64,000 nt of DNA from Gammaproteobacteria bacterium. Lineage in GTDB: Bacteria; Pseudomonadota; Gammaproteobacteria; Steroidobacterales; Steroidobacteraceae. The notes below the pieces were generated by a model, which was not told the origin of the DNA, did no database searches, and worked only from the letters and a program-made list of their open reading frames with translations. The stretch is from positions 695 through 64,694 of the forward strand of contig JBBISV010000003.1 of assembly GCA_037441085.1 (NCBI GenBank), given 5' to 3'. Below are positions 23,936 through 33,884 of this stretch, piece by piece; position 1 is the first letter of the stretch; the number at the start of each line of letters is the position of its first letter. The position numbers and the translations under genes were made by a program.

Positions 23936-26900
23936 TCAATGCCGATCGATGCCGTTCGCGCCGCGCGGCGGGACGGGCGCGGTGAAATGCGCCAGATCCG
24001 CGCGAAAGCTGGTGGCGATATGGGCGACCGCCGACACGAGGAAGACGCCTGCGATCACCGCGGCGAACTTGCGGACGCCGAGCTTCTCGCGCGACTGATA
24101 TTCATAGGCCATCGCCAGAGCCGCGACCCATGCCACGCCGAAGGCCAGGCCGCCGAGAACGTCGGAAAGCCAGTGAGCCCGGAGATAGATGCGGGATGCC
24201 CCGATCAGCGCGATGAGCGCGACGGCCAGCGCGGTTCCCGCGCGGCGCCAGCGCGCGGACGCGCCCCGCAGCAACAGGTAGGCCAGGAACCCATAGGTCA
24301 CCGCGCTCATCACCGCGTGACCGCTCGGAAAGGAGAACTGTTCGACTCCGGCATAACTCGACTGCGGGCGCGGCCGGCGCAAGGCCAGCTTGATCACCGC
24401 CCCCAAAGTCTCCGCGACGCCCGCGGCCGCGATCCAATATCCCGCCGTGAGCCAATTGCGTCTCATGACGAACCACAGCAGGGAGGCGACGATGACCGCG
24501 AGCAGCACCGGCGCGTCCCCGAGTTCGGTGACCGCGACCAACGCACGATCGAGGCCGGCGCTATGCAGCGGCTGCAGCAGCTCGAACAGCCGGACGTCGA
24601 AGTTGAGCTGCGGGTCCTGGCTGAGCACATCCTCCACGACTCCGAAGAACAACCAGGCGCCGCCGACCACCAGGAACGCCGCGACGACCAGGAATGCCTT
24701 GGGGCTGTCGGCGCCGAGCAGCCAGCGGATGATGTCGCGTCGTTGCAGCGGCCGGTTCTCCGCCTCCCGACGGGGCACCGTCGCGGCAACCGCCCGGCTC
24801 CAATGCAGCGAGACGGCCGCGACGGCCGCGATCGCGATGCAGGCCACCCACGCATCCGGCGGCAGCGGCTCGAGCGCGAAGAAGCTCCGCAGCGAAGGCA
24901 CCCAGAGCGTCAGCATGAACAAGGTGGTCATCGCGCCGACGAGCAACGCCCGGCGCGGGCGCAGCACGCCGGCCGCCAGGGCCAGCACCCAGGTCGCCTC
25001 GAGGAACAGCACCAGGGTCGCCGCGGTGCGCGCCGTCCCCGGGTTCGCGGTCCACTCGGCGCGCAGCAAGGCATAGGCGGCGAACACGGCGCTCGCGACG
25101 AACACGCCGGCCGGCACCACGAAATGCAGCACGCGGTCCACGAAGCCCGGCCGCAGGCGGTCCCCGTTCGGTTCCAGCGAGAGAAAGAACGCCGGTACTC
25201 CGATGGTCAGCGCGTCCACCAGCGAAATGTGCCGCGGCAGGAACGGAAACGCGACGCCGGCGACTCCGGCGGCAAGAATCAGCAGCATCGCATAGACGGT
25301 CTTGGTCAGGAACAGCACCGCGACCCGTTCGACGTTGCCGACGACGCGCCGGCCCTCGGCCATGACGGCGGGCATGCTGGCGAATCGATTGTCCAGCAGC
25401 ACGAGCTGCGCGACCGCCCGTGTCGCCGCGGTGCCGCCTCCCATCGCGACGCCGACGTCCGCCTGCTTGAGCGCGGGGATGTCGTTGATGCCGTCGCCCA
25501 CCATCGCCACCGTGTGCCCCGCGGACTGCAGGGCCGCGACGATGCTCTTTTTTTGTTGCGGCGAGGTGCGTCCGAACACGGTGCGGCTGCGCGCCAGTCC
25601 GACGAGCGCCTGTTCGCCCAGCGCCGTGGCATCGACCGGGTCCTCGTCGCCGGCAATGCCGAGCTCGCGGGCCACCGTGGCGGCGGTCGCCGGATGGTCC
25701 CCGGTGATCAGCCGGACCCCGATGCCCTGCGCGAACAGCTGACGCAGCGTCGTCATCGCGTCCGCGCGCAATCGCTCGGTCAGGACCACCAGCGCGACCG
25801 GAACGAGCGGCGTCGGCGCGCGTCCGGGCGCAAGCGTCGCGTCGGATCGCGCGAGCAGCAGCACGCGCAGCCCGGATGCCGCGAGTTCGCGCGTGCGCAC
25901 CATCCGCGCGTCCGCCGCGGGCAGGTCTGCGAGGAGCACGTCGGGTGCGCCCAGCACCCAGGTACCGAGTCCTGCGAACGTCGCGCCGCTCCACTTGCGC
26001 GCCGAGGAGAATTCCACGGTTGCCTGCGCCACGGGTCGATCGATCCCGGCAGGCCACGCGGCGGCGATGGCCTGAAGCGTCGCATTGGGCCGGGACGGGA
26101 CGGCGGCCAGCGCCGAAAGCGCACGCGTGGCGTCGGCGTGATCCGCGAGCGGCTCCATGCTGTGGACCACCAGCGCGCGCTCCGTCAGCGTGCCGGTCTT
26201 GTCGATACAGATGACATCCACGCGCGCGAGCGCCTCGGTCGCCGCCAGGTCTTGCACCAGGGCGCGGCGGCGGGCGAGACGCACCGCTCCCACCGCGAGC
26301 GCGAGGCTGGTCAGCAGCACCAAGCCCTGTGGCACCATCGCCACGACGCCTGCCGCGCCATACAGCAGCGCCCCCGAGACGCTCATGCCGAGCGTGAACT
26401 GGCTGATGAACAGCAAGGTGGCCGTCGGCAGGATCGCCCAGCCGATCACCCGCAGGATGCGGTCGATGCCGGCCCGCAATTCGGAGCGGGCCGGCAGGAA
26501 GCGCCGCGCCTCGGCGTCCAGCCGGTGCAGCCACGTCGCTTCGCCGACCACGGTCGCCCGATAGCGCCCAATTCCTGCGACGACGAAGCTGCCCGAACGC
26601 ACCGCCTCGCCCGCGTCGCGGGCGACCGACTCGGATTCACCGGTCAGCAAGGATTCGTCGAGTTCGAGACCCGATGCGTCCAGCAGCAAGCCGTCCACCG
26701 GAACCGTGTCGCCGGCGGCAAGGTCGATCACGTCGTCGACGACGAGGTCCGCGGCCGCCACCTCCGACACCCGTCCTTCGCGGATCACGCGGGGACGCGG
26801 GCCGGTTTGCAGCGCCAGTCGATCGAGCGTCCATTTGGAGCGCAACTCCTGCCCGATGCCGATCAGCGCGTTGATCACGATCACGCCGCCGAACAACGCG

Positions 26901-27100
26901 TCCTGCCATGACCCCTGCGTGATGACGACCACCCACAGCCCGCCCAAAAGCGCGTTGAAGCGGGTGAAGACGTGGGTGCTCAGAATCTGCCGCAGGGTCC
27001 GGCCGGCCGGCGTGCGCACGCGATTGACCAGGCCGCCCGCGATGCGCTCGCGGACCTCGGCCTGCGTGAGGCCCCCGGGTGCGGCGCGCGCGTCGCTCAT
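23936..27100 (-). CDS. P-type cation-translocating ATPase fused to a C-terminal PAP2 (type 2 phosphatidic acid phosphatase) domain
   Basis: 1054 aa from ATG 27100, which overlaps the upstream stop (ATGA). ATPase motifs are TGES, VPQGL in the TM4 position, DKTGTLT and MVGDGINDIPALKQADVG. The last roughly 270 aa (about 23939-24750) carry all three PAP2 motifs: KLALRRPRP, FPSGH and SRIYLRAHWLSD. Confidence 0.85.
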   Translation of the reverse strand: MSDARAAPGGLTQAEVRERIAGGLVNRVRTPAGRTLRQILSTHVFTRFNALLGGLWVVVITQGSWQDALFGGVIVINALIGIGQELRSKWTLDRLALQTGPRPRVIREGRVSEVAAADLVVDDVIDLAAGDTVPVDGLLLDASGLELDESLLTGESESVARDAGEAVRSGSFVVAGIGRYRATVVGEATWLHRLDAEARRFLPARSELRAGIDRILRVIGWAILPTATLLFISQFTLGMSVSGALLYGAAGVVAMVPQGLVLLTSLALAVGAVRLARRRALVQDLAATEALARVDVICIDKTGTLTERALVVHSMEPLADHADATRALSALAAVPSRPNATLQAIAAAWPAGIDRPVAQATVEFSSARKWSGATFAGLGTWVLGAPDVLLADLPAADARMVRTRELAASGLRVLLLARSDATLAPGRAPTPLVPVALVVLTERLRADAMTTLRQLFAQGIGVRLITGDHPATAATVARELGIAGDEDPVDATALGEQALVGLARSRTVFGRTSPQQKKSIVAALQSAGHTVAMVGDGINDIPALKQADVGVAMGGGTAATRAVAQLVLLDNRFASMPAVMAEGRRVVGNVERVAVLFLTKTVYAMLLILAAGVAGVAFPFLPRHISLVDALTIGVPAFFLSLEPNGDRLRPGFVDRVLHFVVPAGVFVASAVFAAYALLRAEWTANPGTARTAATLVLFLEATWVLALAAGVLRPRRALLVGAMTTLFMLTLWVPSLRSFFALEPLPPDAWVACIAIAAVAAVSLHWSRAVAATVPRREAENRPLQRRDIIRWLLGADSPKAFLVVAAFLVVGGAWLFFGVVEDVLSQDPQLNFDVRLFELLQPLHSAGLDRALVAVTELGDAPVLLAVIVASLLWFVMRRNWLTAGYWIAAAGVAETLGAVIKLALRRPRPQSSYAGVEQFSFPSGHAVMSAVTYGFLAYLLLRGASARWRRAGTALAVALIALIGASRIYLRAHWLSDVLGGLAFGVAWVAALAMAYEYQSREKLGVRKFAAVIAGVFLVSAVAHIATSFRADLAHFTAPVPPRGANGIDRH

Positions 27101-33499: not shown

Positions 33500-33884
33500 G
33501 TTTGGACCTCCTGCGGGCGGCCACCGCGCGTTCGATTTCCTCGAGCAGCGCGGGATTCAGCGCATCGACCGCCTCGACGAGGGCGGCCACCGCGGCGCGC
33601 GGCGCGGCGCCAAACAGGCGGGCAACGGCGCTGCGGGCGCGCGCACGCTCGACTTCGTCAGCGTCGGCGCGTGCCCGGTAGATGAATGCCTGACCCTGAC
33701 GCTCGCGCTGGATCAAGCCCTTCTCGCGCAGCCGGTCCACGACCTTGGCCGTGGTCGTGTACACGAGATTCTGCGGAGCACCGAGGCGCTCATGCAAATC
33801 GCGCACCGACGCCGATCCGAGACGCCAGATCTCGGCGAGCACCGCATACTCGAGATCGTCGGCCGGGAGTCGAAATCGCGTCAT
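33489..33884 (-). CDS. BlaI/MecI/CopY family transcriptional repressor
   Basis: 131 aa with a winged helix (EYAVLAEIWRLGSASVRDLHERLGAPQNLVYTTTAKVVDRLREKGLIQRER) and a C-terminal dimerisation helix region. Confidence 0.85.
   Translation of the reverse strand: MTRFRLPADDLEYAVLAEIWRLGSASVRDLHERLGAPQNLVYTTTAKVVDRLREKGLIQRERQGQAFIYRARADADEVERARARSAVARLFGAAPRAAVAALVEAVDALNPALLEEIERAVAARRRSKRGT

Follow-up and report, generated by a model that had tools for sequence, protein, structure and literature searches.

Background

Regulated proteolysis of the BlaR1 type is the textbook switch of antibiotic resistance, and sensor-less relatives of its membrane protease, such as PetP and PvmS, raise the question of what these proteins detect. 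PetP of Synechocystis sp. PCC 6803 is a sensor-less M56 protease with four membrane helices whose gene overlaps petR; it degrades PetR in the presence of copper, and the PetR operator has the core GAC-N5-GTC (bioRxiv 10.1101/2020.07.31.226407). Further sensor-less pairs are PvmSR of P. aeruginosa and BlaIR of M. tuberculosis and M. abscessus, described in a study that also lists HEXXH, an Asp at +5 and EXXXD as motifs of BlaR-type proteases (bioRxiv 10.64898/2026.08.03.742534). For CopY repressors a C-terminal metal-binding motif, CXCX4CXC, has been described (PMC11672702). Here we analyze an operon in which a BlaI-type repressor and a sensor-less M56 protease are followed by a tripartite pump of the resistance-nodulation-division (RND) type and by a P-type ATPase fused to a PAP2 phosphatase. 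It lies in a stretch of 64,000 nucleotides (nt) from a gammaproteobacterium of the Steroidobacteraceae (GCA_037441085.1, contig JBBISV010000003.1, positions 695 to 64,694), which is referred to as the window.

Precedents also exist for the second half of the operon. According to PMC3431237, which cites Hynninen et al. 2009, the P-type ATPase PbrA and the PAP2-type undecaprenyl pyrophosphate (C55-PP) phosphatase PbrB cooperate in the lead resistance of Cupriavidus metallidurans, whereby lead phosphate is precipitated. CtpE of Mycobacterium smegmatis is a P-type ATPase of the uncharacterised family 23 that is reported to work as a Ca2+ uptake pump and carries the motif VPEGL (PMC5615198).

Operon structure and gene junctions

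Our analysis suggests that this export operon is controlled by a BlaI/BlaR1-type proteolytic switch which regulates itself, lacks a sensor domain and is built like PetR/PetP. All coordinates are positions in the window, and the junction values were read from the sequence. The six genes lie in the same direction on the minus strand, where the original prediction had placed them, and their families were confirmed by Pfam. In order, they encode a BlaI/MecI-type winged-helix repressor of 131 amino acids (aa) (33489..33884; PF03965), a sensor-less M56 membrane zinc protease of 294 aa (32615..33499; PF05569), a periplasmic adaptor or membrane fusion protein with a lipoprotein signal (31509..32618; HlyD_D23/HlyD_3), the RND inner-membrane transporter, which falls into an unassigned clade that we denominate RND-A (28437..31505; ACR_tran), an outer-membrane factor (OMF) lipoprotein (27097..28440; OEP domain) and, in one polypeptide, a CtpE-like P-type ATPase of family 23 (24521..27100; E1-E2_ATPase, Hydrolase and Cation_ATPase_C) with a C-terminal PAP2 lipid-phosphate phosphatase domain (23936..24520; PF01569).

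The genes are joined by junctions of -11, -4, +3, -4 and -4 nt, and the overlaps and tiny gaps that had been claimed for them were all recovered. In detail, the M56 gene starts with GTG and is overlapped by the end of blaI over 11 nt, the M56 stop and the adaptor start share 4 nt (GTGA), the ATG of the RND gene follows the adaptor stop after 3 nt, and the OMF stop overlaps the ATPase start as ATGA. The ATPase begins with the ATG at 27100 rather than with the start of the longer open reading frame (ORF) at 27346.

For comparison, related loci were collected by a pattern scan using one genome per species, which returned 80 loci (83 in several of the later counts), and the window proteins were mapped onto them by tblastn; the related loci number 163 in total. 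Recurrence of both the switch and the operator in about 90 of the related loci shows that the module is real. The commonest junctions within the family are -11 nt for blaI/M56 (84/88 loci), -4 for M56/adaptor (25/54), +3 for adaptor/RND (43/115) and -4 for RND/OMF (41/57). As the first four spacings of the window are these most frequent values, the junction pattern is not a matter of chance.

The original prediction had left two possible starts for the OMF, either within the 3' end of the RND gene or 14 nt behind it, and this is refined here. The best candidate is a TTG at position 28440, fused to the RND stop as TTGA, because the protein then begins with MSAARRVGGWLAVVGATALAGC, a lipoprotein signal with the lipobox LAGC, because the same 4-nt overlap is the commonest one in the related loci and because the gene call in locus L001 agrees with it. 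The GTG 14 nt downstream and a longer start, the TTG at 28524, are less favoured. Internal promoters that would uncouple the genes had been named as an argument against a common operon; in a simple consensus scan of positions 20000-34600 no internal promoter or terminator rose above chance, a scan that owing to the weak -35 of the blaI promoter overlooked this promoter as well.

The blaI promoter region

Directly upstream of blaI there is a perfect palindrome, TACGACGGGCGTCGTA (TACGAC-N4-GTCGTA; 33895..33910), which by its symmetry and conservation is a candidate operator for BlaI. It is the sole copy in the window even if up to two mismatches are allowed. The exact palindrome is present in 65/83 loci and lies within 200 nt upstream of blaI in 64 of 78, a position in the repressor's own promoter that corresponds to the autoregulation typical of this family. 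It was also found in all nine metagenome loci showing sequence upstream of blaI, while the chance expectation, by our own estimate, is about 0.002 palindromes per 20-kb locus.

An alignment of the operator copies shows that the palindrome keeps a fixed position 10 nt before the ATG and that TTGcc stands at a constant distance upstream of it in 70 aligned copies, the common layout being TTGcc-N4-TACGACnnnnGTCGTAgaaT-N6-ATG. In the window this layout corresponds to a putative sigma-70-like promoter on the minus strand with a -35-like hexamer TTGCGC (33914..33919; TTGcc conserved) and a -10-like hexamer TATAGT (33891..33896; TAgaaT or TAgacT conserved), the latter overlapping the right half-site. 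The palindrome fills the 17-nt spacer, and its last two bases open the -10 of this only recognisable promoter, so that bound BlaI would be expected to block RNA polymerase. The distance between the -10 and the ATG is only 6 nt and leaves no room for a Shine-Dalgarno sequence, suggesting that the blaI mRNA is leaderless and autoregulated.

In four genomes a second operator copy directly precedes cargo genes and in this way ties the repressor to the cargo, namely the OMF-adaptor-RND genes in L080 and genes for TonB-dependent receptors in L063, L055 and L047.

Two variations of the promoter region may be mentioned. Five pump-less Steroidobacteraceae loci (L010, L013, L017, L022 and L024) keep the promoter layout with a decayed palindrome about 11 nt upstream of blaI, in which five mismatches have accumulated and the symmetry is lost; this may represent either a degenerating system or a changed specificity. 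In L008 (around 9590-9612) and L074 (around 9580-9600) the palindrome is followed, 10-20 nt further downstream, by a second, imperfect one, and the two may be tandem operators.

The repressor and the membrane protease

The match of the repressor to PF03965 (80.5 bits, cut-off 22.6) supports its membership in the BlaI/MecI/CopY (Penicillinase_R) family. The protein contains no Cys, as do 73 of 77 homologues, and 74 of these 77 have the same length of 131 aa. The motif of the CopY subtype, CXCX4CXC or CXC, is consequently absent, and direct metal sensing in the manner of CopY is thereby excluded for this repressor.

The protease had been predicted to retain its HExxH site without a penicillin-binding sensor domain, and this proved correct. 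HERAH occupies residues 142-146 within MHERAHARHRD, and H142, E143, H146, D151, E183 and D187 are invariant in 16 homologues; all three signatures of the BlaR-type proteases, HEXXH, the Asp at +5 from its second His and EXXXD, are therefore present. Membership in the M56 peptidase family is supported by these motifs and by the fact that PF05569 is precomputed for most of the homologues. The protein has no match among the NCBIfam models. Hydropathy and an AlphaFold2 model (pLDDT 72.9) predict four membrane helices, the third and fourth of which enclose the protease domain on the cytoplasmic side. The chain ends about eight residues past the last helix, which leaves no penicillin-binding domain. 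The top three fold matches in the PDB, weak in themselves, are the cryo-EM structures 8ext, 8exp and 8exq of S. aureus BlaR1.

An exhaustive search of 1.84 billion representatives yielded 185 clusters (50% identity) at E <= 1e-30, nearly all of them 270-300 aa long, which marks these proteins as a distinct sensor-less subfamily. Little of them faces the periplasm, namely the N-terminus MERE[S/T]LL, which is invariant, a loop of about ten residues, GWAL-x-[E/Q]PDPV, and a short C-terminal tail, and these three stretches are identical across all cargo classes.

Distribution and conservation of the gene order

Members of the scanned set occur in Steroidobacteraceae, in several Burkholderiales (Paraburkholderia, Trinickia, Candidimonas, Thiomonas, Rubrivivax, Sideroxydans and Parasulfuritortus), in 'Deltaproteobacteria' and in Binataceae. 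In a collection clustered at 90%, more than 800 relatives of the M56 protein were counted, and those with a named source are mostly Steroidobacteraceae or gammaproteobacterial metagenome-assembled genomes (MAGs). An exact look-up of the M56 protein and of P0001, which matches it at 100%, gave no record in the assembly index. No match to the M56 protein was obtained by tblastn in 72,556 plasmids, so that nothing points to its being carried on plasmids.

A lack of conservation in relatives had been named as the finding that would speak against the module, and the opposite was observed. Where a genome locus extends 600 nt or more upstream of the M56 gene, BlaI is always its direct upstream neighbour (77/77), and among genome loci extending 1.5 kb or more downstream, the switch is followed by an RND pump in 51/78. 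These comprise 44 loci of class A, with adaptor and RND genes as in the window (RND identity 66-88%), and 7 of class C, in which a different pump is encoded in the order OMF-adaptor-RND. The part of the proposed order that holds is thus blaI-M56-adaptor-RND, partly with the OMF, whereas the full order of six genes including both the OMF and the ATPase-PAP2 fusion was found in the window only. The ATPase-PAP2 fusion is part of the operon in only 4 loci. It follows the RND gene without an OMF in L073, L075 and L083, and in the metagenome locus L102 it has a convergent orientation to the operon. When metagenome contigs were scanned reciprocally with the RND clade, relatives of at least 72% identity were mostly preceded by blaI-M56 and the operator.

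The pump and the ATPase-phosphatase fusion

The adaptor scores 107 bits on TIGR01730, above the cut-off, and 76 bits on the CzcB/NccB model, below the cut-off; for the OMF there was no match among the NCBIfam models. The RND protein reaches 570 bits with ACR_tran of Pfam and remains under every NCBIfam cut-off, its best model being multidrug subfamily 2 (424 bits, cut-off 1250). The closest solved structure is ZneA (274 bits), followed by MdtB (231), CusA (188) and AcrB (145). The fourth transmembrane helix (TM4) carries the motif GLLADDAIIVLES throughout the clade. Three further invariant residues of the clade, E616, E656 and E660, align with E610, D654 and D658 of ZneA, which we take to be its zinc site. 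The class C pumps share another TM4 motif, GEVVDDAIIDVEN, seen in L061 and also in the pump of Burkholderia humptydooensis (L085); they are closer to the CusA/CzcA model, with 682 bits for L061 (cut-off 701) and 669 bits for L085.

The ATPase half of the fusion has ten membrane helices together with DKTGT and GDGIND and resembles type II ATPases, without a CPx motif. It is 54-57% identical to proteins of 780 aa which JGI names 'cation-transporting ATPase E'. The PAP2 half scores 62.9 bits on PF01569 and contains KX6RP at 904, PSGH at 925 and SRX5HX3D at 969, that is, all motifs that define the lipid-phosphate phosphatases of this family; its closest solved structure is PgpB/YodM of B. subtilis (E 1.8e-15). 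With ten helices in the ATPase and a cytoplasmic C-terminus of that part, the PAP2 motifs are predicted to lie on the periplasmic side. Such fusions, named undecaprenyl-diphosphatase by JGI, are common in Thiomonas, Burkholderia, Trinickia, Paraburkholderia, Thiobacillus and Acidiferrobacterales, usually outside any BlaI context. Four fusions of about 1250 aa from Burkholderia/Caballeronia (P0183, P0191, P0194 and P0199) contain an additional LssY_C domain (PF14067), which is also found in a stand-alone PAP2 protein beside an RND-A relative (L163, 9305-11347).

Recurring neighbours

The tie between the switch or the pump and a lipid phosphatase, as originally proposed, recurs in several forms among the related loci. 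A phosphatase-type neighbour, either PAP2 or phosphoesterase, is found near the switch in 34/83 loci. A stand-alone membrane PAP2 protein homologous to the C-terminus of the fusion adjoins the switch in L009, L011, L012, L018 and L074, and similar proteins lie beside switch-less RND-A relatives in L156 and L163, the match in L157 being confined to a short linker at the end of a contig. In addition, 20-25 Steroidobacteraceae loci have a divergent permease gene of the ArsB/CitMHS type, followed by the gene of a PAP2 protein with an N-terminal signal sequence. The context in this family is constant (this PAP2 gene, permease, blaI, M56, an MFS transporter and an EAL protein), and the pump cassette appears to be present or absent within it. 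The permease-PAP2 pair is placed on the opposite strand upstream of blaI (L001, L002, L006, L013 and about 20 more), with the operator in the shared intergenic region; the permease reaches 169 bits on the ArsB model (cut-off 457), and its PAP2 partner has the variant motifs KX6GP and PSEH.

Six loci contain a protein with a beta-propeller and a phosphoesterase domain, and in four of the six a TonB receptor gene is present as well. One lineage (L063, 10931-16648; L047, L054 and L055) combines the switch with a TonB-dependent receptor and a beta-propeller/phosphoesterase (PF04185) protein of about 1000-1090 aa.

In Burkholderia humptydooensis (L085, 2268-14077) a two-component system is followed by genes for an OMF, an adaptor, an RND pump and an ATPase-PAP2 fusion; the cargo is thus the same and the regulator a different one, and this cluster adjoins one for type III secretion. 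Since one genome or another links some two of the four elements, the switch, the class A pump, the class C pump and the fusion, we argue that they serve one physiological theme. Metal-related neighbours are seen in a few loci, namely ChrB (L058) and a P1B ATPase (L076). In L056 (16500-17852) the class C pump is directly followed by a DedA/VTT-domain gene with a weak match to UptA, which would be a further link to the undecaprenyl-phosphate cycle.

Other genes of the window

A small ORF on the plus strand (34022-34462) would encode a protein with a signal peptide and, after it, a Gly/Met-rich stretch. The original prediction had it transcribed divergently from the same control region; the ORF exists, but it is not a conserved partner. 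It has no Pfam match, and there is no second operator in front of it. As it is absent from all 163 related loci, it was rejected as a part of the module. The match of this protein to MamS (24.5 bits, cut-off 200) and a match to MamN (27.7 bits, cut-off 500) are far below the cut-offs and were not taken to indicate function.

About 100 nt after the stop of the ATPase-PAP2 gene follow macA/macB-like genes of an ABC pump on the minus strand (20387..23833; MacA 194 bits and MacB 490 bits, both below cut-off). They have no operator copy and are not conserved beside the switch elsewhere, and because of the gap and the missing conservation they were not counted as part of the operon, of which they may be a downstream extension. 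They come without an OMF gene and might share the one upstream. An ORF of 1952 aa on the plus strand (21053-26911), antisense to macAB and the ATPase, is the usual artefact of a G+C content of 70% and not a gene. The flanks at 34476-36799 and 17907-19196, both on the minus strand, encode an OpuAC-type betaine ABC permease/binding fusion with its ATPase and an AraC-family regulator, with no evident link to the module.

Proposed mechanism and alternative explanations

We propose that a BlaI dimer binds TACGAC-N4-GTCGTA and blocks RNA polymerase at its own promoter. A stimulus would act on the four-helix M56 zinc protease, which would then cleave BlaI, and derepression would give rise to a leaderless, translationally coupled mRNA that spans blaI, M56, adaptor, RND, OMF and ATPase/PAP2. 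The cargo would consist of the tripartite RND pump and of the CtpE-like cation ATPase with its periplasm-facing lipid-phosphate phosphatase; an ion would be exported and phosphate released, or lipid phosphates removed, in the way PbrA and PbrB cooperate.

Taken as a whole, a sensor-less switch acting on an export operon with a role in cation or metal stress is in our view rather probably the best explanation of the locus. Its regulatory architecture can be proposed with considerable confidence; cation or metal stress at the envelope as the trigger is a tentative suggestion which may well turn out to be wrong. This trigger is favoured by the affinities of both pump types to metal pumps, by the cation ATPase and by the precedent of PbrA/PbrB. 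It is also favoured by ChrB and the P1B ATPase among the neighbours, by a few records with names referring to mine sites ('mine drainage metagenome', Trinickia dabaoshanensis, a Centralia MAG), by the phosphatase genes near the switch and near switch-less RND-A relatives, and by the CusA/CzcA-like pump that in Burkholderia humptydooensis stands together with an ATPase-PAP2 fusion under a two-component system.

A number of observations weigh against this explanation. With 374 bits on TIGR00914 (CusA/CzcA; cut-off 701) the RND protein is not a canonical metal pump, and its TM4 reads AVGLLADDAIIVLES, with a DD pair as in AcrB. The heavy-metal efflux (HME) RND proteins are defined by DFG-DGA-VEN in this helix, which is not what the window protein shows. 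In the ATPase, VPQGL in TM4 (26330-26344, minus strand, residues 256-260) replaces the VPEGL of CtpE. The glutamate that is replaced by Q serves Ca2+ pumps as a cation ligand. VPQGL is confined to the protein of the window and the 16 fusion clusters closest to it, among them Thiomonas sp. FB-6 and a protein from a mine-drainage metagenome. The association with mine sites is anecdotal and prone to sampling bias, and the periplasmic face of the M56 protein has no obvious cluster of metal ligands, unlike PetP with its Met residues. Concerning the protease itself, the match to PF05569 is marginal (32.8 bits, cut-off 31) and covers residues 114-169 only, the fold match to BlaR1 is weak (TM-score 0.40, E 0.04-0.26, probability 0.82-0.97), and a profile of 16 M56 homologues run against the PDB sequences missed BlaR1. 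Moreover, no pump accompanies the switch in 27/78 loci, and most RND-A relatives of 51-72% identity occur without the switch, one of them with a two-component system instead. The pairing is accordingly frequent and not obligatory, and the idea that the RND-A clade is exclusive to the switch was rejected after the reciprocal metagenome scan. Finally, all locus counts were taken over loci that are phylogenetically not independent.

The same switch could also respond to an organic envelope-active compound, be it a bacitracin-like antibiotic binding undecaprenyl pyrophosphate, a cationic peptide or a detergent. Expulsion of the compound would then be the task of the RND pump, and the pool of C55-P or lipid phosphates would be replenished by the PAP2 domain as by BcrC-type phosphatases. 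The AcrB-like DD pair in TM4 fits this explanation, as does the multidrug RND subfamily as the best NCBIfam model with its 424 bits, yet the multidrug models stay far below their cut-offs and the closest solved structure is that of ZneA. The closeness of the PAP2 domain to PgpB/YodM and the name undecaprenyl-diphosphatase given by JGI agree with it too, but the partner in the fusion is a cation ATPase, and the same switch has a CusA/CzcA-like pump as its alternative cargo. The MacB-type ABC pump directly downstream in the window and the DedA/VTT gene in L056 are likewise in line with it, but neither is a conserved partner. We therefore look upon an organic trigger as somewhat unlikely.

It might further be argued that BlaI and M56 form a self-contained unit whose real targets lie elsewhere, for instance in the divergent operon of the ArsB/CitMHS-like permease and PAP2, and that the pump genes are passengers with their own regulation. 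The loci without a pump, the cassette that is present or absent in a constant Steroidobacteraceae context, the RND-A relatives without a switch and the single operator copy in the window would be in line with this. On the other hand, the 4-nt overlap of M56 and adaptor in the window, with the same start codon spacing of -4 in 25/54 loci, leaves no room for a promoter or terminator at this point, the consensus scan gave no internal signal above chance, L080 has its second operator directly before the pump genes, and RND relatives of at least 72% identity are mostly preceded by the switch, which together make passengers improbable. Still far less probable is a classical system, with beta-lactam sensing as by BlaR1/MecR1 or direct copper sensing of the CopY type. 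It can draw on the family-level homology of both proteins and on a weak CopY_TcrY match (43.6 bits, cut-off 122); against it stand an M56 protein of 294 aa without a penicillin-binding domain, with 185 related clusters nearly all of similarly short length, a repressor without Cys and hence without CXCX4CXC (PMC11672702), and homology maps of 83 loci in which no beta-lactamase or penicillin-binding protein (PBP) gene was flagged, the flanks not having been annotated exhaustively.

If a cation or metal trigger is assumed, a wider proposal may be put forward, which in its full extent is doubtful. The sensor-less M56 family, widespread with its 185 clusters, would be a primary sensor of cation or metal insult at the surface of the inner membrane and, through the destruction of BlaI, would turn on a detoxification programme new to the literature; in it the RND pump and the ATPase-PAP2 fusion would couple metal export to the release of phosphate, in the sense of biomineralisation, or to the removal of envelope phosphate.

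Whatever its stimulus, the M56 family provides a handle on the question of what sensor-less proteases detect, as it combines a fixed 16-bp operator and a predicted leaderless, autoregulated transcript with readable cargo (two kinds of RND pump, PAP2 phosphatases and the CtpE-like ATPase) and at least one carrier in culture, Trinickia sp. NRRL B-1857 (L076). Should the trigger be a metal or an imbalance of cations at the envelope, a third control of metal efflux would stand beside two-component systems and MerR/ArsR-type sensors, and the ATPase-PAP2 fusion, common in Burkholderia, Thiomonas and their relatives but unstudied, would be given a function. Should it be an antibiotic, the switch would deserve interest as a regulator of efflux in soil resistomes.

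Relation to described systems

With the classical BlaI/BlaR1 and MecI/MecR1 systems of Staphylococcus and Bacillus the locus shares the Penicillinase_R repressor, the M56 motifs HEXXH and EXXXD, a palindromic candidate operator and an operon predicted to be autoregulated; BlaR1 is also the top, though weak, fold match of the model. It differs from them by the lack of an extracytoplasmic penicillin-binding sensor, by its Gram-negative host and by its targets, since neither a beta-lactamase nor a PBP2a gene was seen in the homology maps of the 83 loci, whose flanks were not exhaustively annotated. Its half-site is TACGAC, compared with TACA in the BlaI/MecI systems (PMC7253601). The lack of the sensor domain refutes membership in the classical BlaR1/MecR1 group, and the lack of the Cys motif that in CopY.

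On the side of the cargo, ZneCAB and CzcCBA resemble the locus in having a tripartite pump, a CzcB-like adaptor and, with ZneA, the structure closest to the RND protein, whereas the window pump falls short on TIGR00914 (374 against 701 bits), has the DD pair in TM4 and is encoded in the order adaptor-RND-OMF instead of czcC-B-A. The ATPase resembles CtpE, with which it would share family 23 of the P-type ATPases, and differs from it by the fused C-terminal PAP2 domain, by VPQGL in place of VPEGL and by its location in an efflux operon. The likeness to PbrA/PbrB is an analogy and not one of membership: PbrA exports the cation to the periplasm and PbrB supplies periplasmic phosphate, two activities that would be fused in the window protein. 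Only the PAP2 half actually corresponds, as the ATPase is a CtpE-like type II enzyme with VPQGL and without CPC, hence not of the P1B type, and the regulator is BlaI/M56 compared with the MerR-type PbrR.

The model with the best support is a switch like PetR/PetP. Both systems pair a BlaI-family repressor lacking the Cys motif of CopY with a four-helix M56 protein of about 290 aa that has a short loop between TM2 and TM3, a cytoplasmic HEXXH and no C-terminal sensor; in both, the start of the protease gene overlaps the repressor stop and the operator has a GAC...GTC core. They differ in cargo, the RND pump and ATPase-PAP2 fusion here and the petJ/petE switch there, in the operator (TACGAC-N4-GTCGTA as against GAC-N5-GTC) and in the loop, which reads [E/Q]PDPV without Met where PetP has a conserved pair of Met. 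PvmSR and the mycobacterial BlaIR are likewise comparable by their described motifs, with an M56 protein that has no sensor and keeps HEXXH, D+5 and EXXXD. PvmSR, unlike our locus, is placed on a genomic island and affects virulence genes, and the word 'efflux' is absent from the text of the study (bioRxiv 10.64898/2026.08.03.742534). In our literature searches, too, no paper turned up in which a BlaI/M56 pair is connected with an RND pump or an ATPase-PAP2 fusion, and a search for the operator sequence of M. tuberculosis BlaI gave none. The view that the module is an uncharacterised one therefore needs to be divided: it applies to the RND and ATPase-PAP2 cargo and not to the type of switch. 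As its M56 protein has all catalytic motifs and no sensor domain, the locus is grouped with PetR/PetP, PvmSR and the mycobacterial BlaIR, as a switch of known type with a family, an operator and an export/phosphatase cargo that have not been described before.

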